Assembly: GCA_964510205.1 (NCBI GenBank)
Contig: CAZEBW010000004.1
Coordinates: forward strand, 3,638-67,637
Source of the DNA: an uncultured Anaerolineae bacterium
GTDB taxonomy: Bacteria; Chloroflexota; Anaerolineae; VGOG01
Length of the DNA: 64,000 nucleotides
Reading direction: 5' to 3'
Program-made: the position numbers and the translations under genes
Shown: positions 36,974 to 59,684 of the stretch, one piece after another
Layout: the number at the start of each line of letters is the position of its first letter
Position numbering within the stretch: position 1 is the stretch's first letter
Notes under the pieces: generated by a model
Told to the model about the DNA's origin: nothing
Seen by the model: only the letters and a program-made list of their open reading frames with translations
The model's database searches: none

Positions 36974-38437
36974 CTAGACAGACTCTTCCAGCTCCGGACG
37001 AGCCTCTTCTGTCAGCCTGGCGGCAGCCACCGCCAAACCGATGTACAGCCAGAACAGGGCCACGGCGTGGGGGAAGCTGAAGAGGTAATGGTCGAGGATG
37101 CCGCCTATCAGTCCCCCCACCACGGCTGTTTGAAGACCCAACAGGATGGCCTCCAAACGCGGATCGTGCTCCATGTTTTTCCAACTGCGCCAGGTATACC
37201 TGAAGAAGATGGCCATGATGACCAAGAACACGCCCAGCCCCACCAGGCCCATCTCCTCGGCGATGAGCAGGTAGAGGCTGGATACGCCCAGGTAGATGTC
37301 TATATCGGGCGTGCCGATGAAGCCTACGCCGATCCAGGGGTAGCGGCTGATGAGGATGAAGGCGTCTTTGTACTCCCCCAGACGCATTTGGCTGGCCAGG
37401 TCTTGAAACTGCACTCCCTCGGTGAAGTGTATGACGTATTCTCGCGTCTGCGGCAGGAGCAGGACGAGCAGGCCCGCAGCAGCCAGCACGGGCAACAGGC
37501 GGCGATACTTGATCACGGCCAGCAGGACCAGGGCGCAGCCGAGGCCGGCCATTGAGCCTCGCGAGAAGGTCAGAATCAGACAGAGGCCCATCGCCGCCAA
37601 CATGGGTGCGGCCAATGTGCGCTTCAGGAGCGGGCGCCGCGTGAAAAGCTGGGGGACGGTCAGCGACGCCACCAGGATCAACAGGCCGCCCAAAATGTTG
37701 GGGTCCACGGAGGTGCCGATGGCCCGCATGGGCAGCGAGGGGTCGTCGCGGATGAAGCGCAGCACCCCCCAGCCGGCCGGGTAGTTGAAGACGCGCAGGG
37801 CGGAGAGGAGGCGGACGGTGAGGGCGCGGGGCAGGAGATAGAGCACCACGCCAATCAGGGCTTCCCCGAAGCCGGCCAAGATGATGACCAGCACCAACTG
37901 CTCCAGCTCCTTGCGGGTGCGCACGCAGTTGACCGTTACGAAAAACAGGGCGATGCCCATGATGATCTCGGCGAAGCGGCGCACGGCGTTGGGCGTGGGA
38001 CTGGCGTGGGCCAGGCCGGCCACGAAGGAGACGAAGGCCAGGAACAGGAAAATGACGATGGGCAGGGCCAAAGGGGAGGTCACGAACTCCTGCTGCTGGC
38101 CGGTGACCAGGTGGGCCAGCCAGACGGCGAACAGCACCGCCAGCACCAGGTTCGGAAAAGTGGGGGTGAAGCCGATCTTGATGGGCAGGGCGCCGAAGGG
38201 CAGCAGGCAGACGATGCCGATGAGGGCCATGAAGCCGAATTGAGTGCTCTGCAACATCATCAGTCCGCTGACAAGCGCCATCACCAGGGCCGCCGTGATC
38301 AGCGGGCCGGGATAGGCGATCAGCCATCCCCCGATGATTCCCAGCGCCAGGCAGAGGGCTATCACCGCCAGGGCCACCACCCAGCGCTTGTCGGATACGA
38401 AAATGGATTGTAGGCGGTTGTAGGTGGAGTTTTGCAT
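36974..38437 (-). CDS. O-antigen ligase / O-antigen polymerase family membrane protein
   Basis: 487 aa, ~11 TM helices with a large periplasmic loop typical of the Wzy_C family. Confidence 0.55.
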   Translation of the reverse strand: MQNSTYNRLQSIFVSDKRWVVALAVIALCLALGIIGGWLIAYPGPLITAALVMALVSGLMMLQSTQFGFMALIGIVCLLPFGALPIKIGFTPTFPNLVLAVLFAVWLAHLVTGQQQEFVTSPLALPIVIFLFLAFVSFVAGLAHASPTPNAVRRFAEIIMGIALFFVTVNCVRTRKELEQLVLVIILAGFGEALIGVVLYLLPRALTVRLLSALRVFNYPAGWGVLRFIRDDPSLPMRAIGTSVDPNILGGLLILVASLTVPQLFTRRPLLKRTLAAPMLAAMGLCLILTFSRGSMAGLGCALVLLAVIKYRRLLPVLAAAGLLVLLLPQTREYVIHFTEGVQFQDLASQMRLGEYKDAFILISRYPWIGVGFIGTPDIDIYLGVSSLYLLIAEEMGLVGLGVFLVIMAIFFRYTWRSWKNMEHDPRLEAILLGLQTAVVGGLIGGILDHYLFSFPHAVALFWLYIGLAVAAARLTEEARPELEESV

Positions 38438-38448
38438 AAAGACCTCCG

Positions 38449-38580
38449 GGGTTCGTAGATTCGTAAATTCGTAAATTCGTAAATTCGTAGATTCGTAGAT
38501 TCGTGGGTTCGTGGATTTGATCCCGAATTTATGAGTCCCGAGTCTACGAATCTACCAGTTTCACGTTTCACGTTTTACGG
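38449..38580. repeat. Composite repeat block: TTCGTAR x9 direct, inverted partial copy, then TTTCACG x3
   Basis: gttcgtagattcgtaaattcgtaaattcgtaaattcgtagattcgtagattcgtgggttcgtgg ... tctacgaatctac ... tttcacgtttcacgttttacg. Confidence 0.9.
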
Positions 38581-38800
38581 TAATGGTGACAGGCAGTAGG
38601 ATTCTGTTGTCCTTTATCTCTCCATCATCTCCCAAGATTGGCAATCGTTGCTCTGTCGCCAGTTCGTACATTCCGACCTCCAGCCAATGTGGTCCCGCTG
38701 GAGTGTCCTCTCGGACAGTCAGGATGTACTCGTCTTCGATGACCTCGCCGACGTCCCAGACGGAAGTGGGATAATCGCCCTCCAAAGGCTGGCTGTCCAT
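38561..38800 (-). pseudogene. Orphan 79-aa ORF homologous to the C-terminal repeat domain of the adjacent GT-C proteins (likely gene remnant)
   Basis: WLEVGMYELATEQRLPILGDDGEIKDNRILLPVTITV parallels EVGLYLAETGNRLDLLDQDGRLMGNRILLSKVRIV at the C-termini of the paralogs. Confidence 0.4.
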
Positions 38801-38814
38801 CTGCCCCCAGATGT

Positions 38815-38888
38815 GCGCCGCGACGTCATGTGATGAAGCCGCCGCGACGTCATATGATGAAGCGGCCTCGACGTCATATGATTAAGCG
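38815..38888. repeat. 24-nt tandem repeat x3 (GCCGCGACGTCATRTGATGAAGCS) with internal GACGTC / CATATG palindromes
   Basis: Read directly between the remnant ORF and the GT-C gene. Confidence 0.8.
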
Positions 38889-40990
38889 GCCTCGTCAATC
38901 AGGTGGGTGAAGATGGTGTAATCGGTGTCCATCTCTGCCTCAGCTCGCCAGTAGAGGGTCAGGTGGATCTCCTCGTCTGGCCTAAGCTCGACTTTGTCCA
39001 CTTTGTATCCGATCAGAGTGACCTTGTTATCCAGGTTGAAATCCAACGGGTTATCAATCGCTACCTCCCGACGTTCTCGCGGGAGCATCTTCAACTGACC
39101 GATGACGACGCTTGGGGGATCAAGTTTTGAACCAGTGGTGGGGTCGTAGTGCCCCACCTCAACTCGCACGAGGCTGGGCGCTTGGGCGTCCTCGCTGATG
39201 GGCAGCCGATAGGCGTCGGCGATGATCCCCCCTGGGGCCCACAAGCTGGTGGGATACGAACCCCAACCGGGATAGGTGTCCTCAGATCCCACTAGTTCGC
39301 CCCCGCGCCCCAGCAGGTGGATAAACAGGTAGTAGTCCTTCTCCTCCATCTCCGCCAGCCCCTGCCAGTAGAAAGTGACGCCCAGCGTCTCGCCCGGCCT
39401 GACCGTCTCTCTATCTAGTTTGAAACCGAGCAGTCGGATTTTCTCTCCAAAATCGTGGACCACCCCTGGCGGGACCTCGCTGGGGGAGACGATGGGCGGC
39501 CTGGCGTAGGCAGGGTGGATGTAGACAAATGGACAGAGGGCGGCGAAGGCGAACATGGCCAGACCTATCACCGTCACCAGGATGTTAACGTATCTCCCAG
39601 ATACCAGTTGGCTCAGGCCCAGCATCAGCAGGACGGATATGGCGGAGATGGCGGGAAATAGCAGCCGTCCCTGGCTGGCGGGCGTCGTCCACGTCCAGCG
39701 AACTAGTCCCGCGAAGACGATGCCCAGCCAGAGGATGAGGACAAAGAAACCAGGTTTTTCCCGTTTCACAGTACTTCCCTGGGCGTTTGGAGTGTTCGTA
39801 AACTGGTGTGTTTTGGGTCCAAAGGATGCGAAAAACCTGGTTTCTGACAACCAACGCCGTCTCACAAACCAAATCCCCAAGCCCACCAGGGCCAGCAAGC
39901 TTACCACGTCCAGGATGGCGTAGGCGGCGGGCGCAACCAAGATGCTGAACCAGCCAAACAGCGCCCAGAAAGACATGCGCAGGCCCCGAAACTCGCCCCA
40001 CAGTTCTGACAGATTCGATGGCCCACTATCTCGGCCCACCACGGCCAGCATGGCGTTGAGGCCGGTCGGGTCCCCGTAAAGCTGCCAATTCCTGACGTAC
40101 CACCAGCCAGCCACCGCCAGCACTACGGCAAGGACGATCAGCCCCCCGATCAACGGCCTCGCCGACCGGCGGCGGTAGGCTTGCACGACGAGGACGACGG
40201 CGGTCAAGATCAACAGGCCCAGGCCGCTGAGCTTGGAGAGGCAGGCCAAACCTAGGACGAGGCCCAACAACACGTAATACGCAATACGCAATACGAACAG
40301 GCGGCGTGTTGCGTACTGCGTATTGCGTATTTCGTATTGCGTATTGCGTACCAACAGAAGCAGCGTCAGTGACGATAGGAAGACCACTAGATTGTCGTTG
40401 TTGATGGAGCTGCTGATGAACAAGAACTGCGGGATGAAGGCGTTGATGGCTGCGGCGCCGAGGGCGAGGTGTTCGCGGTCAGGGAAGACCTCCAGAGCGA
40501 GTCTATGCGTCAAGAACACGGTGCCTGCCCCCAGGAGCACCGACAGCAGGCGGACGAGGTGCACCGCCAAAGCTGTGCCCTGAAAGGGGAAACTCTCCCG
40601 CCGGGTATGGACGATCACGTTCTTGTTGCCTGCATCCAGCGGCGTGCCGACGTTGCGCTGGGGATTGTACCAGAGTAGGTCCTCCGCCTCGCTGGTATCG
40701 CTCCAGAAAGTGGTCAGTGCGCCGATCAGGTAATACAGAGGCGGCTGGCTGCCCTCCTGCTCCCACAATCCCGGCTCTTCGGGGTTCTGCACCGGCAGTC
40801 CCTTCCCATCAGCAAGATGCTTGATGAAGAAGTAGTGGTAGATCTCATCGGGCGCCTCGAAGATGGGCGTGACCAGGCTGTAGGTGATGCCCAGGGCGAT
40901 GAACGTGGTTAGAATTAGGGTTATGGCCCAGTGTTGTCTCATAGTGCAAAGTCCTACGTCCCACGTCCTACGTCTCACGTCCGAAGTCAT
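38882..40990 (-). CDS. PMT/ArnT-like GT-C glycosyltransferase (GT39/GT83-like), paralog 1, with 2 C-terminal beta-domain repeats
   Basis: ~12 TM N-terminal domain with loop-1 motif FEAPDEIYHY; C-terminal repeats ...LTLYWQ...DYxxFxHL...; N-terminus and an internal site encoded by heptamer arrays. Confidence 0.6.
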   Translation of the reverse strand: MTSDVRRRTWDVGLCTMRQHWAITLILTTFIALGITYSLVTPIFEAPDEIYHYFFIKHLADGKGLPVQNPEEPGLWEQEGSQPPLYYLIGALTTFWSDTSEAEDLLWYNPQRNVGTPLDAGNKNVIVHTRRESFPFQGTALAVHLVRLLSVLLGAGTVFLTHRLALEVFPDREHLALGAAAINAFIPQFLFISSSINNDNLVVFLSSLTLLLLVRNTQYEIRNTQYATRRLFVLRIAYYVLLGLVLGLACLSKLSGLGLLILTAVVLVVQAYRRRSARPLIGGLIVLAVVLAVAGWWYVRNWQLYGDPTGLNAMLAVVGRDSGPSNLSELWGEFRGLRMSFWALFGWFSILVAPAAYAILDVVSLLALVGLGIWFVRRRWLSETRFFASFGPKTHQFTNTPNAQGSTVKREKPGFFVLILWLGIVFAGLVRWTWTTPASQGRLLFPAISAISVLLMLGLSQLVSGRYVNILVTVIGLAMFAFAALCPFVYIHPAYARPPIVSPSEVPPGVVHDFGEKIRLLGFKLDRETVRPGETLGVTFYWQGLAEMEEKDYYLFIHLLGRGGELVGSEDTYPGWGSYPTSLWAPGGIIADAYRLPISEDAQAPSLVRVEVGHYDPTTGSKLDPPSVVIGQLKMLPRERREVAIDNPLDFNLDNKVTLIGYKVDKVELRPDEEIHLTLYWRAEAEMDTDYTIFTHLIDEAA
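40268..40347. repeat. In-frame inverted heptamer arrays (CAATACG x3 / CGTATTG x5) inside a GT-C CDS
   Basis: taatacgcaatacgcaatacgaacaggcggcgtgttgcgtactgcgtattgcgtatttcgtattgcgtattgcgta; encodes RNTQYEIRNTQYATRR. Confidence 0.85.
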
Positions 40991-41035
40991 TGACTTAGGA
41001 CCTCGGACTTAGGACCTAGGACTATTCTCACTTTG
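40921..41035. repeat. Inverted heptamer arrays (GTCCYAC x4 / GGACYTAG x4) spanning a GT-C stop/start junction
   Basis: gtcctacgtcccacgtcctacgtctcacgtccgaagtcattgacttaggacctcggacttaggacctaggac. Confidence 0.85.
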
Positions 41036-43332
41036 CTCAACAGGATTCGGTTGCCCATCAGCCGGCCGTCCTGGTCGAGGAGGTCTAAGCGATTCCCGGT
41101 CTCAGCCAGGTAGAGCCCCACCTCGATCTCGTAGACGTCGGGAGGGGCGTCGGGGGCGATGTCTAGCTCGTATTGGTCCACGACGATTTGCCCCCTGGCC
41201 CAGGCGGAAGTGGAAGGCTGCGGCTGGCGGTCCGCTCCTGCCCAGATCTGATCTCCCTCTCTCAGCAGGTGGACGAAGACGGTGTAGGCGTCCCTCATCT
41301 CGGCCAGGCTCTGCCAGTACAGAGTAAGGTGGATGGCTTCGCCCGGCTCGGCCTTTCTGCGGTCCATCTCGTAGCCCACCAGGGCGATCTGGCCCCCAAA
41401 GTTGAAATGCACCGGATTGGGCAGCCCGGTTTCGGACCTGGGCAAGACCCCGATTTTCCCGAAGCGCACGTTATCTCCCGCAAGTTCTCCATTGGCCCCG
41501 TACACGGGTAGGCGTTCGCCCGTCGCAGCGTCGTAAGGCCCCACCTCCAGTTGGGCCGAACTGGGGGCGTAGGTCGTCTCTGGCAGCGTCAGGGTGTAGG
41601 CGTCCGCGATGGCGTCGCCGGCCTGCCACAGCGTGGTAGGGAAGCTGCCCAGTCCGGGGAAGGTGTTCCTCTGGGCTATGACGAGATCGTTTTCGTCCAG
41701 CAGGTGAACGAAGACGGCGTAGTCCCGGTTCATCTCGGCCAGGGATTGCCAGTACAGGGTGACGGTTAGCGAATCGCCGGGTTGCAGGTTGTAGGTTGTA
41801 GGTTGCAGGTTGTAGCCCAGCAGCTTCATCACTCCGCCGAAGTTCATATCCAGGCGATTTGGGATGGCCTCGATCTGTTCGGGAGAGAGCAGGGGCGGCC
41901 TGGCGTAGGCTGGGGCGATGTAGGCCACGGGACAGATGCAGGCGAACACGAACATCGCTCCGGCCAGCAGGGCTGTGGCCTTGCCTCGCCAGCGGGTGGG
42001 AATGAGTTGTAACCATCCCAGCAGGGGCAGGATGGCGAGGGACGCAGTGGCTGGGAAGAGGTGCCGCCCAGAGGGTGCAAAGACCCACTGCAGCCAGCGC
42101 AGCAGGGCGGCGAAGACCAGTAAGCTCCACAGCAGGAGCAGGGCTAAGCCCTGCCATGTGTCATTGCGAGGAGCGGAGCGACGAAGCAATCTCCTCCTTG
42201 CGGCTTGGGGATTGCTTCGCTTCGCTCGCAATGACACATCCGTGAGTTTGGTCCCGTTTCTAACGACTAGAACTAACAGCCCCAGGGCGCCCAGGCGCAC
42301 CACAATTCGCAGGACGGTGTAGATCCAAGGGTGGACGTGGACATTGCCCCAGCCGAAGGCGGCCCAAAAGGACAGCTCCATCTGAGAGAACTCGTGGATC
42401 AACTCGCCGAGGGTGAGCTGCGGCCGGCCGGGGCCCACGATGGCTTGGTGGATCTGCACCCCCAGCGGGTCGCCGTGCAATCGCCAATTCAAAGTATACC
42501 ACCATCCGGCTACGATGGCAACAACAGCAAAGACGATCAGGCATGCCTTGAGAAAGGCCCACCCAGAGCCTCTGCGCCAGGCGGCCATGGCGATGGCCAC
42601 GACCGCAGCAGGCAGCAGGGCCAGCGCGCTCGCTTTGGTGATGAGGGCCAATCCCACGGTCAGCCCCAGCCAGACCAGACGGCGGGTGGAGAGGCCCCTT
42701 CTCCTCAGGCGGACCATGAGCCACAGGGCCAGGGTGCACAGGGCCGACACTGCGCTGTCGTTGCTCACTGCACTTGATATAAAGATGAACTGCGGATTGA
42801 AGGCCACCAGGCCCGCTGCACCAGCGGCGAAAGAACGTTGCCGGGGGAACAACTCCAGCGCAATCAGATAGGTGGCCAAGACGGTGGTTGCTCCCCAGAG
42901 CACCGACACCAGGCGGGCCATACGAACGGCCAACACCGCGCCGCGATAGGGGAAGCGTTCCTCGTTGGTGTGAAGCACTCGGTTTTTGTTGTCGTTGACC
43001 GTGCCAGGCGCGCTGTAGCCCCAGAAAGGATTGAGCCACGCCAGGTTCTGCCAATCGTCGTCTTCGATCCAGAACGTAGCCAAAGCCGCCGTGACATAAT
43101 ACAGTGGGGGCTGGGTGGCCTCCTGTCTCATCAGAGGCTGCGTTTGCGCCAGGCTCTGCACCGGCAGACCTTTCCCGTCGCCCAGCCATTTGACGTAAGG
43201 GTAATGCCACAACTCGTCGGGCTTCTCGAAGAGGGGCGTGGCTGCGTTGTAGGCGATGCCCAGGGCGAAAAACGCGGTTAGGATTAGGATGATGGCCCAA
43301 TGTTGTTTGATGGTCCGAGGTCCCCTATCCAT
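40987..43332 (-). CDS. PMT/ArnT-like GT-C glycosyltransferase, paralog 2, with 3 C-terminal repeats
   Basis: FEKPDELWHYPY loop motif; contains in-frame GGTTGTA repeats (TYNLQPTTYNLQP) and the palindromic element (SLRAKRSNPQAARRRLLRRSAPRNDT). Confidence 0.6.
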   Translation of the reverse strand: MDRGPRTIKQHWAIILILTAFFALGIAYNAATPLFEKPDELWHYPYVKWLGDGKGLPVQSLAQTQPLMRQEATQPPLYYVTAALATFWIEDDDWQNLAWLNPFWGYSAPGTVNDNKNRVLHTNEERFPYRGAVLAVRMARLVSVLWGATTVLATYLIALELFPRQRSFAAGAAGLVAFNPQFIFISSAVSNDSAVSALCTLALWLMVRLRRRGLSTRRLVWLGLTVGLALITKASALALLPAAVVAIAMAAWRRGSGWAFLKACLIVFAVVAIVAGWWYTLNWRLHGDPLGVQIHQAIVGPGRPQLTLGELIHEFSQMELSFWAAFGWGNVHVHPWIYTVLRIVVRLGALGLLVLVVRNGTKLTDVSLRAKRSNPQAARRRLLRRSAPRNDTWQGLALLLLWSLLVFAALLRWLQWVFAPSGRHLFPATASLAILPLLGWLQLIPTRWRGKATALLAGAMFVFACICPVAYIAPAYARPPLLSPEQIEAIPNRLDMNFGGVMKLLGYNLQPTTYNLQPGDSLTVTLYWQSLAEMNRDYAVFVHLLDENDLVIAQRNTFPGLGSFPTTLWQAGDAIADAYTLTLPETTYAPSSAQLEVGPYDAATGERLPVYGANGELAGDNVRFGKIGVLPRSETGLPNPVHFNFGGQIALVGYEMDRRKAEPGEAIHLTLYWQSLAEMRDAYTVFVHLLREGDQIWAGADRQPQPSTSAWARGQIVVDQYELDIAPDAPPDVYEIEVGLYLAETGNRLDLLDQDGRLMGNRILLSKVRIVLGPKSEVLSQ
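42157..42238. repeat. Palindromic repeat element, copy 2, inserted in frame inside a GT-C CDS
   Basis: atgtgtcattgcgaggagcggagcgacgaagcaatc...gattgcttcgcttcgctcgcaatgacacat. Confidence 0.75.
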
Positions 43333-43583
43333 AGTCCATAGTCCTAGGTCCGATGGAAGGCGGCCTCGGACCTAGCGCGATTTCACAAAACAGGCATTGA
43401 TTCTTGAGACAGCGTCCGCCAGGGGCTCCGCTGCGCTCAAGCCCCTGGCTCAGTCTACAAAGCCCCCGCTGGGGCTGGGGTCGTCAGGCCGCAGGCCTTT
43501 GTACCTGAGCCCGGCGGCTTCAGCCCCGGGCGGAGTGGCGGCGGAGTCAACCTTTGTTGTGTGATGCAGTGCTAGGCTTGGAT

Positions 43584-45926
43584 TTATTTGACTCGTACTT
43601 TGCTCAACAGCACGCGGTCGTCCAGCAGCCGCCCGCCCTCCCCCACGATTCTCAGGCGGTCGCCTGTCTCCGCCAGGTAGAAGCCTATCTCGACGTCGTA
43701 CACGTCGGCGGGAGTGTCGGCATAGATGGTAAGTTCGTATTCGTCCACTATCGTCTGGCCGGGCTGCCAAGTCGAAGTGGGGGACTTGCCGTCCAGGGGC
43801 CAGCTATCCTCTTGGGCCCAGATGCGGTTCTCTTCTCCCAAAACGTGGGTGAACACGGAGTAGTCTTCTTTCATGTCAGCCAGCCCCTGCCAGTAGAGGG
43901 TCAGGTGGATGGTCTCGCCGGGCGCGGCCGTCCGTCGGTCCATATCGTATCCGACGAGGGCGATCTTGTTTGCGAAGTTGAAGTGGACGGGGTTGGGCGC
44001 CTCTGCTTCAGCTCGGGGCAGGATCTCGAATTGGTGGAAGCGGACGTTGTCGCCCAGGGCCTCTCCATTGGGAGCGTAGGCCGACAGCCGCTCCCCGGTG
44101 TCGAAGTTGTAGAGTCCCACGGCCAGTTGGGCTTGGTTGGGGGCGAAGGCCGTCTCTGGCAGGATGAGGACGTAGCGGTTGGCGATGGCCTCTCCTGGCG
44201 ACCAGAGGCTGGTGGGATAGAGGCCCTGTCCGGGGTACATGTCTCGTTGGGCGACGATGAGCTCGGTTTGGTCGAGCAGGTGGACGAAGGTGCTGTAGTT
44301 CTCGTTCATTTCGGCCAGGGCTTGCCAGTAGAGGGTGACCTCCAGTGAATCGCCAGGTTTCAGGTGACTGGGTATTGGGTATTGGGTATTGGGTATTGCG
44401 TAGCCTAGCAGCTTGATCACTTCGCCGAAGGAGACGTCGAGGCGGTTGGGGATGGCCGCGATCTCTGCTGGTGAGAGGGGTTGGGGTTTGGCGTAGGCGG
44501 GGGCGATGTAGCGGAAGGGGGTGGCGGCGGCGATGATGAACATCAGGCTGCCCAGCAGGCAGGCCAGCGTTTTGGTGTAAGCGAAGCGGCGGTTTTTGTA
44601 AGCGAAGCGACGGCGTCGGGGCACGAACTGGCTCAGGCCCAAGAAGAGCAGGATGGAGAGGGCCGAGATAGCTGAAAAGACCAGTCGCCCTTGAGAGGAC
44701 CAGGTCAGCAGCGCCCAGCGGATCAGGGATATGAACACGATGGCCGGCCAGGCCAGCAGCAGCGCTACTTTGATCCAGGCCTCTGGCCGTGGTTTGTCTC
44801 CAATCAATTTGCGAATCAGGAAGGCGATCACCCCCAGGGCGGCTGCTATGGCCATGAGATTCAGCAGGTCGTAGACCCAGGCATCCATGGGCACGTTCAC
44901 CCCGCCGAACAGGCCCCAGTACGACATGGCGAAGCCCTCACGCTCCCCCCACAATTGACGGAGGGTGGCGGGCGGGTGGCGCCGGCCCAGAATGTCCAGG
45001 AACACGTTTAGCCCCAGGGGGTCGCCGTAGAGCTTCCAATTCCTGACAAACCACCAGCCTGACAGGAGTGCAGCCAGACCCACCACGATGAGGCCGCCTT
45101 GCAGGAGAGTTCGCCAGGAGCGTTGACGGTAAGCAGCGTAGGCGACGGTCAGGCCCGCCAGCGCCAGGAGACCGATGGCGCTCTCTTTGGTCAGGATGGC
45201 CAATCCTATGACCAGCCCCAGCCATGCCCAATCGCGGTTTGCGGTTTGCGGTTTGCGATTTGCGATTTGTGGTTTGCGATTTGTGATTTTGACCATCATC
45301 AGCAGGGCCAGGCTGCACAAGGGCACCACCAAGTTGTCGTTGTTGATCGCGCCGCTGACGAACAGGAACATGGGAGTGAAGGCGTTGACGGCGGCTGCGC
45401 CCAGGGCCAAGTCCTCGCGGCCGGGGAAGATCTCCAGAGCGAGCAGGTAAGTCAGCAGCACCGTGGCCGCTCCCATCAACACCGAGAGGAAGCGTATGAG
45501 GTGCACGGCCAGGGCCGTCCCATGCCAGGGGAAGGCCTCTTGTTCGGAGTGTATGACCAAATTGGTGTTGCCGTCGGCGGTCAGCACGCCGTTATCCACG
45601 TGGGGGTTGGGCCATAACAGGGGCGGCTGGCCGTGGTAGGCGTCGTCGGTGTCAATCCAGAAAGTGGCCAGGGCGCCCAGGGCGTAGTACAGGGGCGGCT
45701 GGCTCCCCTCCTGCCGCCAGGGCTGATCAATGCCGGGATCCTGCACGGGTAGACCGTGGCCGTCCGCCAGGTGCTTGACGAAGGGGTAGTGCCACAACTC
45801 GTCGGAGGCCTCGAAGATGGGTGTGACTACGCTGTAGGCAACGCCCAGGGCGATAAACGTGGCCAGGATGAGGGCGATGGCTAAAGGTTGTAGGTTGTAG
45901 GTTCTAGATTTTAGGGTTGCGTTCAT
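43584..45926 (-). CDS. PMT/ArnT-like GT-C glycosyltransferase, paralog 3
   Basis: FEASDELWHYPF motif; in-frame heptamer insertions at 44361-44400 (GGTATTG; AIPNTQYPIPS), 44575-44610 and 45225-45290 (GCGRTTT; KITNRKPQIANRKPQTANRD). Confidence 0.6.
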   Translation of the reverse strand: MNATLKSRTYNLQPLAIALILATFIALGVAYSVVTPIFEASDELWHYPFVKHLADGHGLPVQDPGIDQPWRQEGSQPPLYYALGALATFWIDTDDAYHGQPPLLWPNPHVDNGVLTADGNTNLVIHSEQEAFPWHGTALAVHLIRFLSVLMGAATVLLTYLLALEIFPGREDLALGAAAVNAFTPMFLFVSGAINNDNLVVPLCSLALLMMVKITNRKPQIANRKPQTANRDWAWLGLVIGLAILTKESAIGLLALAGLTVAYAAYRQRSWRTLLQGGLIVVGLAALLSGWWFVRNWKLYGDPLGLNVFLDILGRRHPPATLRQLWGEREGFAMSYWGLFGGVNVPMDAWVYDLLNLMAIAAALGVIAFLIRKLIGDKPRPEAWIKVALLLAWPAIVFISLIRWALLTWSSQGRLVFSAISALSILLFLGLSQFVPRRRRFAYKNRRFAYTKTLACLLGSLMFIIAAATPFRYIAPAYAKPQPLSPAEIAAIPNRLDVSFGEVIKLLGYAIPNTQYPIPSHLKPGDSLEVTLYWQALAEMNENYSTFVHLLDQTELIVAQRDMYPGQGLYPTSLWSPGEAIANRYVLILPETAFAPNQAQLAVGLYNFDTGERLSAYAPNGEALGDNVRFHQFEILPRAEAEAPNPVHFNFANKIALVGYDMDRRTAAPGETIHLTLYWQGLADMKEDYSVFTHVLGEENRIWAQEDSWPLDGKSPTSTWQPGQTIVDEYELTIYADTPADVYDVEIGFYLAETGDRLRIVGEGGRLLDDRVLLSKVRVK

Positions 45927-49276: not shown

Positions 49277-50302
49277 TCAATCTGGCTCTGCGGTGAGGGC
49301 TGAGCTCTCAACGGCAGCCTCGTGCGAAGCGCCTGCCCGCTCAATCAACTCAAATCCTTCCCGCGAGAGATAGAAGTAGCCCAAGGCCAGGGGGAGTATG
49401 TGAGTGGCCCGAAAAAGGAGGGCGAAGGCTAGTGCATCGCTCCTGTCGGCGGAGAAGACCGCGAGTATGCCGGCGAAAACGAATTCCAGAGTACCCACTT
49501 TGCCAGGCAGAGCCGGGACGAGGCTTGCCAAGTTGAAGATGACCAGCAGAAGGACATAGATGTATCCGGACAGGGATATGCCTAACGAGGCGCCGGTCAG
49601 AAGAAAGGTGATCAGCATAAGAGACCAAGCCGAAAACGATAGAAGGACTGAGAGCGCCATCCCTCTTCCCTCTTTCAAAATCAACATCCCTTTGCTGAAG
49701 GAGGCCAACAGGTTCTTGGCTTTGGAGGCCAGAGAGGGAGAGATTTTGGCCAACCCCGTGGTCAGCAGATGGGTGATGTCTTCCCCTCGGTGATACCAGC
49801 TCGCCAGGAGAAGGAGGCCGACGGCAAATAGAAGGCCGGCCAGACCACCCACGTACATGATCCAGTCGGGCAGCGGGAAAAGACGGAGGAGCACCAGCAG
49901 GCCAAAGAGTAGAATCAGCACATCGAGCATCCTCTCCACGACGATGGTCGCCAGAACCGTGCTGGTCCGCAGGCTTTCCCCTCTTGCCAGCGCGAAAGCG
50001 CGCAACAACTCGCCCGATTGGACGGGTAGAAAGTAGTTGCCGAAATAACCAATCAAAATCCTGGGCAGCAGAATGCGGACCCTCAAATCCTTAACCGGCC
50101 TGAGAAGATACTTCCAACGGGCGGCTCGCAAGCCGAAAGCCCCCAGGCGAAGCAAATTGGCCAGAACCAGATAGGAGTAGTCAGCTCCTCGCAGGGCCAA
50201 CGCGAGCTTTCCCGCCTCGATATTTCTCACGACCAGGAACAATAGGAGAAGGCTGATTCCAGTTCCGATCAGCAGCCGATATCTTTTCACCGTCAACCCC
50301 AA
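49277..50302 (-). CDS. Flippase-like domain protein (UPF0104 / lysylphosphatidylglycerol-synthase TM-region family)
   Basis: 341 aa, 8 TM, N-terminal KRYRLLIGTGISLLLLFLVV. Confidence 0.55.
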   Translation of the reverse strand: MGLTVKRYRLLIGTGISLLLLFLVVRNIEAGKLALALRGADYSYLVLANLLRLGAFGLRAARWKYLLRPVKDLRVRILLPRILIGYFGNYFLPVQSGELLRAFALARGESLRTSTVLATIVVERMLDVLILLFGLLVLLRLFPLPDWIMYVGGLAGLLFAVGLLLLASWYHRGEDITHLLTTGLAKISPSLASKAKNLLASFSKGMLILKEGRGMALSVLLSFSAWSLMLITFLLTGASLGISLSGYIYVLLLVIFNLASLVPALPGKVGTLEFVFAGILAVFSADRSDALAFALLFRATHILPLALGYFYLSREGFELIERAGASHEAAVESSALTAEPD

Positions 50303-51981: not shown

Positions 51982-51995
51982 ATCAGATCAATCTC

Positions 51996-53678: not shown

Positions 53679-53848
53679 ATCTTACCTCAGTGGACGGATT
53701 ATAGACGAAAGCGTGGGTAAAGTCAATGCAGGCCAAACAGCATTTTCCCCCTCGTTGTAGAGGGGGATGACGATAGATCCGTCTGCTTTCACCTCTGCGA
53801 CCCTCCCGCAGACTCTGAGCCTGCGGGAGGGTGTTATTGGCTGTCGGT

Positions 53849-56074
53849 CTATGGCCCGAAGTTCTTGAGCACCAGCGGCAAATAGACGTGGTAGGCGGAT
53901 GTCGGCGTTGTCGTGGATGTGGCAGTGCTGGTTGCGGTAGGCGTAGGTGTGCGGGTGGCCGTTGGTGTGTTGGTCAGCGTTGGAGTCAGCGTGTTTGTAG
54001 GCGTTGGTGTGTTAGTCGGTGTTGAGCTTGGCGTGGCGGTAGAGGTTGATGTAGAGGTGGGCGTCGGCGTAGGCTCGTCTGTGATGCGCAAGATGAGGAG
54101 GCCACCTGCGTTATCGGCCACGTAGACGTAGTCCCCGGCCACCTGAACGCCTCTGGCATCGCCGGGCGTGTCAAAGGCCCCAACTTCGATGGGATTTTCC
54201 TTGTCAGCCACGGAGACGATCCGCAGGCCAGCGCTTCCATAGGCCACGTAGGCGAGGTTTCCTACGACCTGAACGTCGAAGGCCCAGCCACGGATGTCAA
54301 ATGAGCCGACCTCGGTGGGATGGGCCTTGTCGGCCACCGAGATGATCCGCAGACCGCCCCCCCGATCGGCGACGTAGGCATAACTGCCAGCCACGTGCAC
54401 ACCGCTTGCCCGGTCGGGTGTATCGCAGAAGCCTTCCTCTGTAGGATTGGCCTTGTCGGCAATGGAGATGACGCGCAGCCCGCTTTCTCCGTCGGCGACG
54501 TAAGCGTGGTTGCCGACCACGTGCACGCCGCTTGCCTGGTCGGGTGTATCGCAGAAGCCTTCCTCTGTGGGATTGGCCTCATCGGCAACGGAGATGATGC
54601 GCAGCCCGCTTTCTCCATCGGCGACGTAGGCATAAGCCGCTGTCGCTTCCGAGGCCGCTGCCGCTTCGCCCACTACATGAACGCCTTTGGCGTCATCGGG
54701 CGTCTCGGCGAAGCTGACTTCGGTGGGGTTTGCTTTGTCCGAAACGGAGATGACGCGCAGCCCAGCCACGCCATCGGCGACGTAGGCGTAAGCCGCTGCC
54801 GCTTCCGAGGCCGCTGTCGCTTCCGAGGCCGCTTCTGCTTCCGAGTCACCCACCACGTAAACGCCCTTAGCCGAACCAGTGGTATTCCAGAAGCCTTCTT
54901 CTGTAGGATTGGCCTTGTCGGCCACCGAGATGACTCTAAGTCCCTCGTCCCACTCAGCGACGTAGGCATAGTTCACTTCCGAGGCCGCTTCCACATAAAC
55001 ATCCCTTGCCTCGCCAGCGGTGTCGAAGAAGCCTTCCTCTGTCGGACTGGCCTTGTCGGCCACGGAGATGACTCGGAGGCCGCCTGTCTCATCGGCGACG
55101 TAAGCGCGGTTGTCAGCTACGTGAACGTCGAACGCTCGGTCGGGTGTGTCACAGGAACCGACTTCAGTGGGATTCTCCTTGTCGGCCACCGAGATGACCC
55201 GCAGCCCGCCGTAGTTGTGGGCGATGTAGGCATGGTCGCCCACAACGTGGACCTTCCTGGCATAGCCAGATAGGTCCAGATGGCCAGTCTCAGAAGGATT
55301 CTGCTTGTGGGCGACTGAGATCACCCGCAGACCTCTATCCCAATTGGTGACGTAGGCGTGGGCCGCTCCCGCTTCCGAGTCGTCCATGACGTGAACGCCA
55401 TTGGCCGAGCCTGGCATATCGAAGAAGCCGACCTCGGTGGGGTTGGCCTTGTCGGCGACGGAGATGATCCGAAGCCCTCCGGTTCCAGCAGCGACGTAGG
55501 CGTAGGCTCCCAAAACGTGGACGTCTTCTGCCGAGTCGGGCGTGTAGAGGGAGCCTACCTCGGTTGGATTCGCCTTGTCAGCAACGGAAATGATCCGCAG
55601 CCCGCTCCACTCGTCGGCCAGGTAGGCGTACTCGCCAACGACATGAACGCTGTGGGCACGGTCCAAATCTAGGTGACCTACCTCAGTGGGGTTGCCTTTG
55701 TCGGCAAGCGAGATGATCCTTAGGCCCCCGTCCCCAGCGGCGATATAAGCGTAGGCCGTTTCCACTTCCGAGTCCCCTTCCACGTGGATGTCCCTCACGA
55801 TGCCGGGGAGCGCTTCAGTGCGTCCCATCTCGGTGGGGTTGGCCGGATCGGAGACATCCACGATGACCAGCTTCAGCCCGTTGCCGACATAAGCGTACTG
55901 TCCGGCGACGTGAACGGCGTGAGTCGCTCCCCTAATCTGGCCCACTAACTCCAGCGCCAAACCGTTCTGGGCGCCCTGGGGCGGAAGGGCCAGCCCCGAA
56001 AGGGAAGTGCCCGCCAGGATAAGTGCGAGGCTGATGACGACCGGGGCAATCTTCCAGAGATGTTCTTTGTTCAT
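53849..56074 (-). CDS. Secreted LVIVD-repeat beta-propeller protein with Thr/Pro-rich C-terminal linker and short hydrophobic tail
   Basis: Signal peptide MNKEHLWKIAPVVISLALILAG; ~14 repeats of YAYVAD..GLRVISVADKANPTE (LVIVD motif at LKLVIVDVSDPANPTEMG); PT-rich segment; ends AYHVYLPLVLKNFGP. Confidence 0.7.
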   Translation of the reverse strand: MNKEHLWKIAPVVISLALILAGTSLSGLALPPQGAQNGLALELVGQIRGATHAVHVAGQYAYVGNGLKLVIVDVSDPANPTEMGRTEALPGIVRDIHVEGDSEVETAYAYIAAGDGGLRIISLADKGNPTEVGHLDLDRAHSVHVVGEYAYLADEWSGLRIISVADKANPTEVGSLYTPDSAEDVHVLGAYAYVAAGTGGLRIISVADKANPTEVGFFDMPGSANGVHVMDDSEAGAAHAYVTNWDRGLRVISVAHKQNPSETGHLDLSGYARKVHVVGDHAYIAHNYGGLRVISVADKENPTEVGSCDTPDRAFDVHVADNRAYVADETGGLRVISVADKASPTEEGFFDTAGEARDVYVEAASEVNYAYVAEWDEGLRVISVADKANPTEEGFWNTTGSAKGVYVVGDSEAEAASEATAASEAAAAYAYVADGVAGLRVISVSDKANPTEVSFAETPDDAKGVHVVGEAAAASEATAAYAYVADGESGLRIISVADEANPTEEGFCDTPDQASGVHVVGNHAYVADGESGLRVISIADKANPTEEGFCDTPDRASGVHVAGSYAYVADRGGGLRIISVADKAHPTEVGSFDIRGWAFDVQVVGNLAYVAYGSAGLRIVSVADKENPIEVGAFDTPGDARGVQVAGDYVYVADNAGGLLILRITDEPTPTPTSTSTSTATPSSTPTNTPTPTNTLTPTLTNTPTATRTPTPTATSTATSTTTPTSAYHVYLPLVLKNFGP

Positions 56075-56099
56075 CTTTCCTTCCATTCGCTTCTCTTGC

Positions 56100-57305
56100 T
56101 CAGGTGATCTGATCTTGCAGAACTCTCTCGTAAAGCGCACCTGTTTTCTCAGCGATCTTCTCCCAGGTGAAGCTCTGGGCTAGTCTGGCCGCCCCCTCGC
56201 CCAGGCGCCGCCGCAGCTCGGCGTTCGACGCCAGTCTGGCAATGGCCTCGGCCAGCGCGACCGGGGCGTCGGGGGGGACGAGGAGGATGTTCTCTCCATG
56301 CACAAGCTCAGGCACGTCCGCTCGTGGGCGGGTGCTGACGGTGGGCAGGCCATGGGCCAGGGCGGCCATGAAGCTCCCCCGCCGGAACGAGGCCCCGTCC
56401 CGGTAGGGCAGCACGCAGATGTCGGAGGCCAGCAAGTTGGCTGAGACCTCGGCCTGGGGAGTGTAGCCCGTCCAAAACACGCTATCCGTCAGGCCCAGCT
56501 CCGCGATCAAACCTTCGACCCTCTTCAGATAGGCCAGGTTGGTGGGATCGCTGGAGCCTACTTTGCCCCCTACCATCATCAGTTGGAGGTTGGAGGTTGA
56601 TTGCATCAGCCTAGCCAGGGCACGTATCAGGGTTTCGGCTCCTTTGCTCTTGTTGAGGAAGCCGAAGTAGGAGAGCAGGATGTCATCCGGTCCCACGCCC
56701 CAACGGGCTCGCCAGGCCTCGCGGTCGTAGTCCGCCGGCGGTGCGGGGCTGATGTTGGAGCCGATGGGGATCAGCGATAGGGAGCGGATGGACGAATAAT
56801 CGGACAGCCTGGCGAAATCCTCGGCGTTGGTGGCGATGACGGCGTCGCTCCAGCGGGCCAGGGCCAGGTTCACCCACCAGCGCAGGGGGCCGGCTTTGGG
56901 GAAGAGGTAGGGCACCTTTAGATCGTGGAAGGTGACTACGGTCAACGGATGGTCTTTGGAAGAACGGGACGCGAGGCGCAGCGGCAGGAGATTGATGGCC
57001 GGGTGCATGTCGTAGGCGGCTGTCTGGTATTGGATGTTGACGATGTCGGAGCGGGTCTCGTTCAGTAGCTCGATGATGCGTCGCCAGGAGCCCCAATCCC
57101 ATTTCTCGATGATAGGGAAAAGGGACAAGTGACCAGTGACAAGGGGCAGCCCTGATCCCTTGTCCCTAGTCCCTAGTCCCTTGACCGAGGTGATAACGCT
57201 GACCTCAACTCCCAGCTCGGCCAGCGCCTTACCCAGCTCGTTGGTGAAATCTCCCACACCGCCTTGCATGGGTGGGAACTCGCCGCTGATTAGACACACT
57301 TTCAT
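56100..57305 (-). CDS. Glycosyltransferase family 4
   Basis: MKVCLISGEFPPMQGGVGDF... GT-B fold with E-x7-E region; in-frame heptamer insertions at 56575-56600 and 57140-57180. Confidence 0.8.
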   Translation of the reverse strand: MKVCLISGEFPPMQGGVGDFTNELGKALAELGVEVSVITSVKGLGTRDKGSGLPLVTGHLSLFPIIEKWDWGSWRRIIELLNETRSDIVNIQYQTAAYDMHPAINLLPLRLASRSSKDHPLTVVTFHDLKVPYLFPKAGPLRWWVNLALARWSDAVIATNAEDFARLSDYSSIRSLSLIPIGSNISPAPPADYDREAWRARWGVGPDDILLSYFGFLNKSKGAETLIRALARLMQSTSNLQLMMVGGKVGSSDPTNLAYLKRVEGLIAELGLTDSVFWTGYTPQAEVSANLLASDICVLPYRDGASFRRGSFMAALAHGLPTVSTRPRADVPELVHGENILLVPPDAPVALAEAIARLASNAELRRRLGEGAARLAQSFTWEKIAEKTGALYERVLQDQIT

Positions 57306-57546
57306 GCTTCGGTCCTGCTTTCGAGAACACGGATGTACAGGGTAGTCCCCCTCTTGGGTGTTGTTGATTGGCCCTCGGTCTGAAGACCTCGGCTGATACA
57401 GGAAATCCGTTGAAACGGATTCAGAACAAATGCGATTTATCGCATTTTATGTCTCAGCCGGGCAATTCATTGCTCGGCAAGGCCAGCAACACTCTACGGG
57501 GGGACTACCGAGTACAGGATTTACGGATTTTGCCTCAAGCTGGGTA

Positions 57547-57586
57547 GCTTCAGTAGATCGCGGTCGCTCCCGTTGAATTGCCAAAC
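57547..57586 (-). other. Conserved ~40-nt motif, copy 2 (see 36865-36905), followed by two perfect hairpins
   Basis: gcttcagtagatcgcggtcgctcccgttgaattgccaaacc; nearby aatccgttgaaacggatt and aaatgcgatttatcgcattt hairpins at ~57400-57460. Confidence 0.4.
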
Positions 57587-57603
57587 CGACTGAGCTTGAT
57601 CCG

Positions 57604-58623
57604 TTAATCCTGCGAATCCGCCGTTATCCTCCCTAACACTTGCCAATACGACTTAATCCGCGCTGCTCGCAGCGGTCGCTTGTGCCCCACCAGCCACTTG
57701 AGGGCTTCTACGATCAGTTGATAGAAATAGGTGACTAGGATAAACAACCGCAACGCCTCTGCTTGCCACGGGCCGTGATGCTTGCGGAAATAGCGGATTT
57801 TGCTGCGCTGGAATTGGATGTGCTGGAAGGATTTGACCTGCTCGCTCGATTGCCCCCCGTGGTGGACCACTTTGGCCGTGGACAGGTAGATTATCTTCCA
57901 GCCTCGCTCCTGGGCTCGACGGCACCAATCCAATTCCTCAGAGTACATGAAGAAGCCTTCGTCTAGTGGCCCCACCTGTTCGATGGCCTCGCGGCGGGCC
58001 AGCAAGCAGGCTCCAGTGACCCAGTCCACCTCTTGCACCTCGTCGTCCGGGCGGTCTGCGATGTAGTAGCGTCCGGCGACGCGGTTGTGGGGGAACCACT
58101 GCTGCATGATCGTGCTTTCCAGGAAAGCGGTGGTCAGGGTCGGGAAGCGGCGGCGCGAGGACTGGATGCTGCCGTCGGGGTTCAGGAGCTGCGGCCCCAG
58201 CGCGCCCACTTGAGGATGCTCGTCCATGTACTCGACCATCGTCGCCAGCGCGTCGCCGACCACTTCCGTGTCCGGGTTCAGCAGCAGGACGTATCGCCCC
58301 CGGCTGACGGCGATGCCCTGGTTGTTGCCCACGGTGAAGCCCACGTTCTCGCGGTTGGCGATGAGCCGCACCTGGGGGAACTCCTTTTCAACCATCGCTG
58401 CGCTGCCATCTGAGGAAGCGTTGTCTACTACGATGACCTCGAGCCGGAAGTTGGAAGGTGGAAGGTGGAAGATGGAATCGAGACAACGCTTCAGGAGGTC
58501 TCGTACATTCCAGTTCACGATCACAATGGACAGATCCATTCTAACCTTCGACCTCCAATCTCCAACCTCTAACCTCCAACCTCCATTTGCTAAGACGGCG
58601 GCTTCTAGGCCGCCGCGTCTCAA
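57604..58623 (-). CDS. Glycosyltransferase family 2 (true start probably MDLSIVIVNWN near 58539)
   Basis: IVNWNVRDLL...VVDNASSDGS; the annotated N-terminal extension is encoded by GGTTGGA-type heptamers. Confidence 0.75.
   Translation of the reverse strand: MRRGGLEAAVLANGGWRLEVGDWRSKVRMDLSIVIVNWNVRDLLKRCLDSIFHLPPSNFRLEVIVVDNASSDGSAAMVEKEFPQVRLIANRENVGFTVGNNQGIAVSRGRYVLLLNPDTEVVGDALATMVEYMDEHPQVGALGPQLLNPDGSIQSSRRRFPTLTTAFLESTIMQQWFPHNRVAGRYYIADRPDDEVQEVDWVTGACLLARREAIEQVGPLDEGFFMYSEELDWCRRAQERGWKIIYLSTAKVVHHGGQSSEQVKSFQHIQFQRSKIRYFRKHHGPWQAEALRLFILVTYFYQLIVEALKWLVGHKRPLRAARIKSYWQVLGRITADSQD
58440..58600. repeat. Inverted GGTTGGA/GGAAGGT heptamer arrays flanking the GT2 start codon (one array in frame inside the CDS)
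   Basis: gaagttggaaggtggaaggtggaagatgg (58443-58472) vs cctccaatctccaacctctaacctccaacctcc (58548-58590). Confidence 0.8.
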
Positions 58624-58706
58624 ACATCTATCCCCAAGTTACCAATTCAGGACTCTCACCCCTCACCGCAAGACAGATGGCCGCCACCTCTCATTGCCTC
58701 GTTGCC

Positions 58707-59684
58707 TCATTCTCGCCGCTCTACCACAAAATTGGCTAGGTCGAGCATGGCCTGGCGGTATTCGTTGGGGGGCAGGAGCGTGAGGGCCTCGCGGCTCTTG
58801 GCGGCGAAACGCTTGGCTTCGGCCGTGGAAGACTCAATCGCTCCCGATTCCTTGATCGCTTTCAGCGCTTGCGCCTCATCGCCTCCCCGATCTCGCCCGT
58901 TCAGCACGCTGGTCACTGTCTCGTCCTCTGGATGGGCCTCCAGGAAATAGAGAGTGGGCAGGGTGAGGATGCCCTGGCGCAGGTCGCTGCCGACAGGCTT
59001 TCCCAGCACATCCTCGTTGCCTGCGAAGTCGAGGATGTCGTCCACGATTTGAAAGGCCATTCCCAAGTTGTAGCCATAATCGCGCAGGGCTTGTATTTCT
59101 GGCTCCGGTGCGCCGCTCAGGACGCCCCCCGCCTCCGTTGAGGCGGCGAAGAGAGAGGCGGTCTTGCTGTAAATGCGTTGGTAGTAGTATTCCCTAGCGG
59201 TAGCCGTTGTTCGCTCCCCCTCTTTGCTGTCAAAGATCTGATTCAACTCGCCGCTGCAGATCGTCATCAGGGTTTGGGCGAAGATGGAGACCACGCGCAC
59301 GCTCTCGGTCTCGGCGGCAAACGCCGCTGATCTGGCGAAGAGGTAATCACCGGTCAGCACCGTCGCTGCGCTGTTCCACATGGTATTCAGGGTGGGGTTG
59401 CCGCGGCGTAGAAAAGCGTTGTCTATCAAATCGTCGTGGACGAGAGTGGCTGTGTGCAGCGTCTCCACGGCTGCGGCCAGGGAAGTGACCTTTTCGGCGT
59501 CGGCGGGATAGAACTTGCTCGATAGGAGAACCAGAGCAGGGCGCATCCGCTTGCCGCCGCCGCTCAGCAGATAGTCCAGTATGGTCCTCATTTGTTCGTA
59601 TTCGATGCGGTAGACTTCGCGCATCTTGCGCTCTACACGCTCCAGGTCCTGGCGGATGATTTTGAAGATGGGGATGACCTTCAA
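58707..59684 (-). CDS. Polyprenyl diphosphate synthase (trans-isoprenyl diphosphate synthase family)
   Basis: First and second Asp-rich motifs LVHDDLIDNA and FQIVDDILDF. Confidence 0.85.
   Translation of the reverse strand: MKVIPIFKIIRQDLERVERKMREVYRIEYEQMRTILDYLLSGGGKRMRPALVLLSSKFYPADAEKVTSLAAAVETLHTATLVHDDLIDNAFLRRGNPTLNTMWNSAATVLTGDYLFARSAAFAAETESVRVVSIFAQTLMTICSGELNQIFDSKEGERTTATAREYYYQRIYSKTASLFAASTEAGGVLSGAPEPEIQALRDYGYNLGMAFQIVDDILDFAGNEDVLGKPVGSDLRQGILTLPTLYFLEAHPEDETVTSVLNGRDRGGDEAQALKAIKESGAIESSTAEAKRFAAKSREALTLLPPNEYRQAMLDLANFVVERRE

Follow-up and report, generated by a model that had tools for sequence, protein, structure and literature searches.

A tandem array of GT-C glycosyltransferases with repeated C-terminal beta-sandwich domains is a candidate envelope glycan locus in an uncultured Anaerolineae bacterium

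Four glycosyltransferases (GTs) of the GT-C type are encoded in tandem in a 64-kb stretch of DNA from an uncultured Anaerolineae bacterium (Chloroflexota), here called the window. They belong to a run of consecutive genes that all lie on the minus strand (Table 1). Our preferred reading, held with middling confidence, is that this locus assembles or decorates a cell-envelope glycopolymer, which might be a secondary cell-wall polysaccharide or a lipoglycan. An earlier note had proposed that the four GT-C paralogs stand in tandem within a large locus for envelope glycosylation, and this is supported. The run of genes that was named there is real and consecutive and its families were matched by Pfam or NCBIfam models, and the two 4-nt overlaps (40987/40990 and 45923/45926) both read ATGA. 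The gene content, the fold, the domain architecture, the orthology of the paralogs and the conserved neighbours are shown by the analysis and are described first.

The three small paralogs (1 to 3) are mutually 42-48% identical over their full length, with 48% between paralogs 3 and 2. Paralog 4 has a divergent membrane domain, which shares about 30% identity with the others over about 170 residues only, an extra middle region (residues ~440-660) and three C-terminal beta-sandwich domains. A PMT-type loop motif had been claimed for every paralog. It was found in the three small ones as F-E-x-[PS]-D-E-x-x-H-Y (PIFEAPDEIYHY, PLFEKPDELWHY and PIFEASDELWHY), but not in paralog 4, which reads ITWDEPMWVY with a W-D-E-P core. 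In paralog 2 the motif covers residues 33-44 and the membrane domain residues 1-476. P33, E36, D39, E40 and H43 of this first loop are invariant, which would fit a pair of catalytic acidic residues like that of many GT-C enzymes. Like the GT39/PMT enzymes, the proteins have the GT-C fold, and their first extracytoplasmic loop holds an acidic DE motif. The polytopic GT-C transferase of a three-component glycosylation system is present.

The family of the enzymes was tested with Pfam in 13 members. PMT_2 matched 13 of 13, DUF2142 nine (counted at E ≤ 1e-3) and PMT (PF02366) four, and neither a PMT_4TMC nor a MIR domain was found in any of the 13. The check with hidden Markov models (HMMs) that the earlier note had suggested gave a split result in the window: all four paralogs matched PMT_2, and a single one matched PF02366, partially, over profile positions 85-233 of 245. 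For DUF2142 (PF09913, gathering threshold 30.1 bits) paralog 2 passed the threshold in an alignment that spans profile positions 3-343 of 395 and takes in the first loop, whereas paralog 3 (28.9 bits) and paralog 1 (16.8 bits) stayed below it and paralog 4 had no match.

No sequence relatives of the GT-Cs were found in the PDB, either with a single sequence or with a profile of 67 sequences. An AlphaFold2 model of paralog 2 computed from 67 homologues had a predicted local distance difference test value (pLDDT) of 90.7 and a predicted template-modelling score (pTM) of 0.88. It shows about 11-13 membrane helices in the membrane domain, followed by two beta-sandwich domains. The structural comparison scored 23.5 for Pmt4, 23.3 for ALG12, 22.0 for ArnT, 21.6 for Pmt2, 21.1 for AglB, 20.2 for AftB, 19.5 for PIG-M and 18.4 for STT3B. 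Since the model is similarly close to several GT-C families, the predicted GT-C fold of the array proteins can be taken as certain, whereas their assignment to the PMT family cannot. The closest database proteins all come from metagenome-assembled genomes (MAGs) of Anaerolineae or other Chloroflexota and are annotated variously as DUF2142, ArnT-like or GT39. In one homologue, P0113, a flippase-like LPG_synthase_TM domain is fused to the GT-C. The label 'dolichyl-phosphate-mannose-protein mannosyltransferase' on such genes should not be read as evidence for protein O-mannosylation.

The C-terminal domain had been described as 2-4 copies of about 110 residues. An iterated HMM search corrected this to about 140 residues, with 2, 2, 2 and 3 copies in paralogs 1 to 4. 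The structure prediction of the repeat, also suggested before, was run as a separate model and gave a beta-sandwich with a pLDDT of 93, whose fold resembles the glycan-binding domains of Wzt and the immunoglobulin-like domains of GH2 enzymes. No Pfam model matched this tail domain in the window paralogs. Residues Y25, W44, W68, D72, W82, D90 and R119 of the domain are invariant. An exhaustive profile search found it in 26,967 clusters (50% identity) at E ≤ 1e-3 and in 5,408 at E ≤ 1e-30, typically in proteins of 750-1100 residues with 2-4 C-terminal copies; a word-indexed database search returned almost only contig-end fragments, which carry no architecture information. When the nine top-scoring representatives were scanned, the domain stood behind a GT-C-type membrane domain in eight, belonging to the PMT, PMT_2, PTPS_related and TMEM260-like subfamilies, and the ninth had no Pfam match. 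With eight of nine fused in this way, the tail domain looks like a common accessory module of bacterial GT-Cs. The helix count and the positively charged loop between transmembrane helices (TM) 4 and 5 suggest that the tail would be extracytoplasmic, and it may bind the acceptor or the product. The family is large, has no Pfam model and could explain the choice of acceptor by bacterial GT-Cs. Its size and breadth are the most useful by-product of this analysis.

A scan with one genome per species gave more than 553 homologous stretches, and the 78 loci that were kept all carry a Chloroflexota label. Cultured relatives with homologues are Thermoflexus, Ktedonobacter (K. racemifer), Caldilinea and Ardenticatena. 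Neighbours were counted by tblastn of the window proteins against 79 related loci, across which the conserved backbone is PGM-TatD-(PPS)-GT2-GT4-GT-C(x1-5)-Wzy_C, where PGM stands for phosphoglucomutase and PPS for polyprenyl diphosphate synthase. Matches were found to GT4 in 33 loci, to GT2 in 24, to Wzy_C in 16, to the LVIVD protein and to the flippase-like protein (Flp) in two each and to the alkaline phosphatase (AP)-superfamily proteins in one. Among the loci with enough flanking DNA, GT4 precedes the first GT-C by no more than 4 kb in 19 of 49, GT2 lies within 6 kb upstream in 18 of 49 (about 60% identical there) and Wzy_C downstream in 9 of 42. GT4 stands directly upstream of the first GT-C even in distant Anaerolineae, at about 50% identity, and Wzy_C follows the array directly in every close relative with enough flank, at 81-86% identity. 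Judged by gene order, GT2 and GT4 are conserved core partners of the array. The window paralogs are 63-76% identical to their own counterparts in the related locus L001, more than to their neighbours in the window; the duplications are therefore old and the copies probably non-redundant. Some relatives have five or six GT-Cs, and orthologues of paralog 4 with 1033-1137 residues are present in L001, L008 and L022.

The block between GT4 and the array varies. In the window it reads LVIVD-AP-AP-Flp and in L001 BrkB plus an ArnC-like GT2. L022 has Flp, a GHMP kinase, LVIVD, an ArnC-like GT2 and an extra GT-C, and L008 has Flp, an epimerase, an ArnC-like GT2 and an extra GT-C, with an AP-Flp pair downstream. 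We propose that LVIVD, AP and Flp form an insertion, specific to the lineage, that separates GT4 from the array, and the AP genes appear to be lineage-specific accessory genes. The ArnC-like GT2s of L001, L008 and L022 matched at 3e-70 to 3e-73, and their match to PgfS was 1e-51 to 1e-57. Together with the extra GT-C and the LPG_synthase_TM protein (Flp homologues occur in L008 and L022), this added GT2 gives the close relatives the classic multi-component layout. The array of another relative, L040 (1826-21691), is larger still, with five PMT_2-type GT-Cs in one direction (four detected by Pfam and the fifth by tblastn). L040 also encodes a 1062-residue protein of which the C-terminal ~85 residues match YfhO partially; the YfhO family comprises teichoic-acid glycosylation enzymes.

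How such a locus might work can be outlined as follows; donor, acceptor and sequence of events are our proposal. On the cytoplasmic side, GT2 and GT4 would assemble a glycan on a lipid at the inner face of the membrane, and the LPG_synthase_TM-like protein could act as the flippase that brings lipid-linked sugars across. At the outer face the four GT-Cs would each add a sugar or an oligosaccharide from a polyprenyl-phosphate carrier to the growing glycan, while their two or three C-terminal beta-sandwich domains would hold the acceptor glycan. The Wzy_C protein might then polymerise the product or ligate it to its final anchor. The only functional literature that we found for the nearest Pfam family, DUF2142, concerns the lactococcal proteins WpsI and WpsJ, GT-Cs of a monoderm whose proposed role is the polymerisation of a cell-wall polysaccharide or its transfer onto rhamnan (PMC9574508, PMC12599335). 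A literature search on Chloroflexota GT-Cs, O-mannosyltransferases and secondary cell walls found nothing relevant. Chloroflexota, filamentous bacteria that abound in sludge, sediments and hot springs, have a poorly understood envelope to which no glycan pathway has been assigned. The conserved module of GT2, GT4, GT-C array and Wzy_C is a concrete candidate locus for their envelope polymer.

Several observations weigh against the assembly of an envelope glycopolymer. Among the scanned open reading frames (ORFs) of the window no initiating phosphoglycosyl transferase, Wzx, Wzz chain-length regulator or ABC exporter was found, so that of a Wzx/Wzy-dependent pathway Wzy_C alone is present, and the scans also found no ArnC/GtrB-like polyprenyl-phosphate-sugar synthase. 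The best NCBIfam matches of the window GT2 are MftF, EpsD and a rhamnosyltransferase, and it is not ArnC- or GtrB-like. A small flippase of the GtrA family had no match in the window, where the LPG_synthase_TM/TIGR00374 protein occurs instead. The adjacency of GT2 and GT4 (37-39% of the loci with enough flank) and of Wzy_C (21%) might reflect no more than the synteny of a single subclade. A weak point of the argument is that the tail domain resembles known folds in a generic way only. A secreted protein with a Thr/Pro tail lies inside the locus in two genomes, the window and L022, and the tail domain has further fusion partners in TMEM260-like and PMT-like GT-Cs, whose eukaryotic relatives glycosylate proteins.

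The last two points lead to protein glycosylation, which we consider unlikely, although it is the strongest competitor. The GT-Cs would then move polyprenyl-phosphate sugars onto Ser/Thr residues in the Thr/Pro stalks of secreted surface proteins, for instance the LVIVD protein, like the actinobacterial Pmt or the Pgf system of Streptococcus mutans; alternatively, the Wzy_C protein would be a PglL-type O-oligosaccharyltransferase that transfers the GT2/GT4 glycan en bloc. The Wzy_C fold is common to the PglL/PilO O-oligosaccharyltransferases, and Pgf is a protein O-glycosylation machinery. The LVIVD protein has an N-terminal hydrophobic segment as a putative signal peptide, a Thr/Pro/Ser tail of about 70 residues and the C-terminal end YLPLVLKNFGP; its likely start is the ATG at 56074 (MNKEHLWKIAPVV...). 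In L022 an orthologue with 60% identity, a matching Thr/Pro tail and the C-terminal tag again lies within the GT-C locus. The invariant D-E of the first loop resembles the PMT motif, PMT_2 and PMT models match, the GT2 of the relatives also matches PgfS, in L008 with an adjoining epimerase, and elsewhere the tail domain accompanies GT-Cs of the TMEM260-like and PMT-like types.

Other observations speak against it. The specific claim of the earlier note, a PMT-type O-mannosylation of the LVIVD tail, is not supported: the GT-Cs have no sequence relative in the PDB, PF02366 matches partially and in a minority of members with no PMT_4TMC or MIR domain, and an LVIVD orthologue was confirmed in 1 of 79 loci (L022), whereas GT2, GT4 and Wzy_C recur. 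A second apparent linkage, in L040, was rejected since the tblastn match fell under a PMT_2 GT-C gene and none of the seven largest ORFs belonged to the LVIVD family. The literature on 'LVIVD' describes only a surface-protein repeat. A synthase for polyprenyl-phosphate (Pren-P) sugars was not found in the window, the polyprenyl synthase is of the quinone type and the gene of glycoside hydrolase family 99 (GH99) is linked in none of the 79 relatives. An array of four to six paralogs that diverged long ago and bear glycan-binding-like domains suits the stepwise building of a glycan better than the modification of a protein.

The end of the LVIVD protein belongs to a motif that is also seen elsewhere. 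A C-terminal tag [FY]LP[LM][IV]x[KR]xx is common to the GH99-like and LVIVD proteins of the window and to four ORFs in L004, L022, L047 and L071, with examples such as FLPLITKNW, YLPLVLKNFGP, YLPLIRKGD, YLPLILRGA and YLPMILRR. Both window proteins have an N-terminal hydrophobic segment. The tag occurs at six C-termini among 2398 ORFs, against 0.33 expected, and no transmembrane segment follows it. The tag may be a sorting or anchoring signal of Chloroflexota.

Somewhat less probable again is that the locus holds no single pathway but a syntenic mosaic, in which GT2, GT4, PPS, TatD and PGM are housekeeping neighbours, the GT-Cs are independent modifiers that use donors made elsewhere, and LVIVD, AP and Flp are unrelated insertions. 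Plainly unrelated genes (TatD, PGM and the trans-prenyl synthase) do sit within the conserved backbone, the accessory genes (BrkB, GHMP kinase, epimerase, extra GT-Cs) vary in every close relative, gaps of 298 and 251 nt and many repeat insertions break the run, and single GT-C genes without these partners are found in 18 of the 27 loci with both flanks. A mosaic would, however, have to account for genes that all lie on one strand, mostly with tight spacing or ATGA overlaps, and for the constant placing of GT4 in distant Anaerolineae and of Wzy_C in close relatives described above.

A wider proposal, to which we give little weight as a whole, joins these threads. The tail domain would be a previously unmodelled, very large acceptor-recognition module for bacterial GT-Cs, the array an extracytoplasmic assembly line for a Chloroflexota-specific envelope glycan, and this glycan would possibly be placed on Thr/Pro stalks with the [FY]LP[LM][IV]x[KR] tag.

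Table 1. Genes, domains and further features of the window
Feature	Position	Strand	Matches and remarks
Wzy_C (O-antigen ligase/polymerase-like) polytopic membrane protein, 487 aa	36974-38437	-	PF04932 3e-14; weak matches to IctB and to the model of the PEP-CTERM-associated O-glycosylation ligase
GT-C paralog 1, annotated ORF (702 aa)	38882-40990	-	PMT_2 7e-06; read-through frame 38561-40990
GT-C paralog 2, 781 aa	40987-43332	-	PMT_2; DUF2142 37.4 bits
Paralog 2, beta-sandwich domain 1	41443-41892	-	
Paralog 2, beta-sandwich domain 2	41008-41442	-	
Paralog 2, first-loop motif	43201-43236	-	PLFEKPDELWHY
Spacer between paralogs 3 and 2, 251 nt	43333-43583		GC-rich
GT-C paralog 3, 780 aa	43584-45926	-	PMT_2 1e-10, DUF2142 6.7e-07
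Paralog 3, two C-terminal beta-sandwich domains	~43587-44480	-	
GT-C paralog 4, 1103 aa	45923-49234	-	PMT_2 1.5e-13; weak Agl23 match
Paralog 4, three C-terminal beta-sandwich domains	~45926-47245	-	
Flippase-like membrane protein (LPG_synthase_TM; Flp)	49277-50302	-	PF03706 3.5e-47, TIGR00374 4e-29
AP-superfamily (NPP/Phosphodiest) protein, first of two tandem, 562 aa	50293-51981	-	PF01663 8e-41
AP-superfamily (NPP/Phosphodiest) protein, second of two tandem, 560 aa	51996-53678	-	PF01663 7e-44
LVIVD beta-propeller protein	ORF 53849-56140, likely 53849-56074	-	LVIVD x13 2.8e-113; choice-of-anchor B TIGR04312 5e-35
Cytoplasmic GT4 glycosyltransferase	56100-57305	-	Glycos_transf_1 1e-21, Glyco_trans_4_4 1e-12
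GT2 glycosyltransferase	57604-58623	-	PF00535 7e-25; likely start MDLSIVIV ~58539
trans long-chain polyprenyl diphosphate synthase (PPS)	58707-59684	-	PF00348 3.5e-71; HepT 5.8e-81; solanesyl-PP synthase 2.6e-73
GH99-like gene	29503-31119	+	9e-29
PGM/PMM (phosphoglucomutase/phosphomannomutase)	61136-62560		Pfam match
gmd, C-terminal 142 aa of Gmd in window	63573-63998		2.9e-43
HEPN protein and nucleotidyltransferase, between PGM and gmd	62557-63292	-	HEPN 3.5e-31; Polbeta 1.4e-10
Low-GC region	14904-24193	-	GC 0.50-0.55 against ~0.60 elsewhere
446-aa ORF, catalytic part only of class II alanyl-tRNA synthetase	24229-25569	-	PF01411 5e-70
429-aa ORF, CHU_C type IX secretion signal domain	26441-27730	-	8e-10

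The other genes listed in the earlier note were re-examined in the same way. The GH99-like, PGM/PMM and gmd genes are present by family matches, gmd with its 3' end only. The GH99 gene was rejected as a member of the system, because it lies on the opposite strand with Lon, enolase and others in between and shows no linkage in the relatives. The polyprenyl synthase is indeed a synthase, of the HepT/solanesyl-like trans long-chain type that makes quinone chains, and not a cis synthase for carrier lipids; it is probably a syntenic neighbour and not part of the glycan system. The two proteins called AP-superfamily phosphotransferases do belong to that superfamily (NPP/PhnA-like), but their matches support NPP/Phosphodiest only and no phosphotransferase activity. 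Their best PDB relative is a phosphonoacetate hydrolase, aligned over the N-terminal 100 residues only (6e-05), and no N-terminal hydrophobic segment was seen by eye.

The annotated ORF of paralog 1 ends at an in-frame TAA (38882-38884) within a 24-bp tandem repeat of three copies (38817-38891), which falls into a loop of beta-sandwich domain 2. At this codon the first copy reads TAA and the others TCA, and past it the frame runs on to a stop at 38561-38563, encoding the remainder of domain 2. At the same site the orthologue in L001 has two repeat copies and no stop, and that in L003 has no insert. As the orthologues read through, the TAA would be a recent nonsense change or a sequencing error, and the 24-bp unit is apparently a variable-number in-frame repeat.

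Both the genes and the spacers of the window often contain 7-8-nt units in tandem arrays, e.g. at 40945-41030, 40262-40356, 45228-45295, 27919-27973, 29535-29589, 34818-34880, 38452-38517, 41780-41815, 44369-44402, 58446-58585 and many other positions. Where they lie in genes, the arrays add peptide insertions to the proteins, e.g. NTQYEIRNTQY, NRKPQIANRKPQ and TYNLQPTTYNLQP. Two inverted pairs of arrays can form long hairpins, one with a folding energy (dG) of -38.9 and a z-score of -4.4 and one with a dG of -46 and a z-score of -5.1; the loop of the former contains the AUGA in which the stop and start codons of paralogs 2 and 1 overlap. A regulatory role of this hairpin was considered and rejected. 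The orthologous junctions keep the ATGA and the heptamer arrays, with other units, but the hairpin, strong as it is here, is missing at four of five of them, which makes a hypervariable repeat more probable than a regulator. The GT-C array has a single sizeable gap, the spacer between paralogs 3 and 2, whose sequence is unique in the window and could hold an internal promoter or a repeat element. An Rfam scan of 36-60 kb, which includes this spacer, gave no match.

Further features lie outside the glycosylation locus. The low-GC region encodes two response-regulator-CHAT proteins, a response-regulator-Schlafen/AlbA_2 protein, a small HATPase protein and a 1245-residue histidine kinase with six GAF domains, and may be a signalling or defence-like island. 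The HEPN protein and the nucleotidyltransferase form a pair in an arrangement typical of putative toxin-antitoxin modules. The CHU_C match is unexpected for Chloroflexota.

The nearest known systems to an envelope glycopolymer locus of this kind are the transmembrane glycosylation systems of monoderms (WpsA/B-WpsG-WpsI/WpsJ, CsdA/B-CflA, GacI/J/K/L, CsbB/YfhO), reviewed in PMC9574508. As in these, polytopic GT-Cs are proposed here to use lipid-linked donors at the outer side of the membrane, their genes cluster with those of cytoplasmic GT-A/GT-B enzymes and of a flippase, and in the relatives an ArnC-like GT2 adjoins a GT-C. DUF2142, the Pfam family of WpsI/WpsJ, is matched above its threshold by paralog 2. 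Unlike these systems, the window has an LPG_synthase_TM-type protein where no GtrA- or Wzx-type flippase was found, it showed no Pren-P-sugar synthase, and it and its relatives have four to six tandem GT-Cs, each with 2-3 copies of an unmodelled C-terminal beta-sandwich. The phylum, Chloroflexota, is also a different one.

The mycobacterial Emb/Aft enzymes (embC-embA-embB; AftA, AftB, AftD) are tandem GT-Cs with extracytoplasmic beta-sandwiches of the carbohydrate-binding type that build a cell-wall glycan stepwise from polyprenyl-phosphate sugars. The array described here likewise combines tandem GT-Cs with beta-sandwich domains, but it has no sequence similarity to Emb/Aft, and its accessory domain is of another type and is placed differently. 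With GT39 (yeast Pmt1/2/4, actinobacterial Pmt) and Pgf it shares the fold, the first-loop D-E and a Thr/Pro-rich secreted protein in the locus. It differs from them in lacking PMT_4TMC and MIR, in its weak and partial PF02366 match and in its partners, which are GT2, GT4 and Wzy_C and not a Ppm1-type synthase; the structural scores against Pmt, ALG12 and ArnT are similar. As to ArnT (GT83)/ArnC, the JGI annotates homologues as ArnT-like and ArnC-like GT2s occur in related loci, but the window proteins have extra C-terminal domains and no PDB-level sequence similarity; to our knowledge Chloroflexota are monoderms without lipopolysaccharide, and a lipid A acceptor is not expected. A glycan locus in a MAG will be little surprise to a specialist, and the tandem GT-C array with its unmodelled accessory domain is best seen as a variant of a known system.

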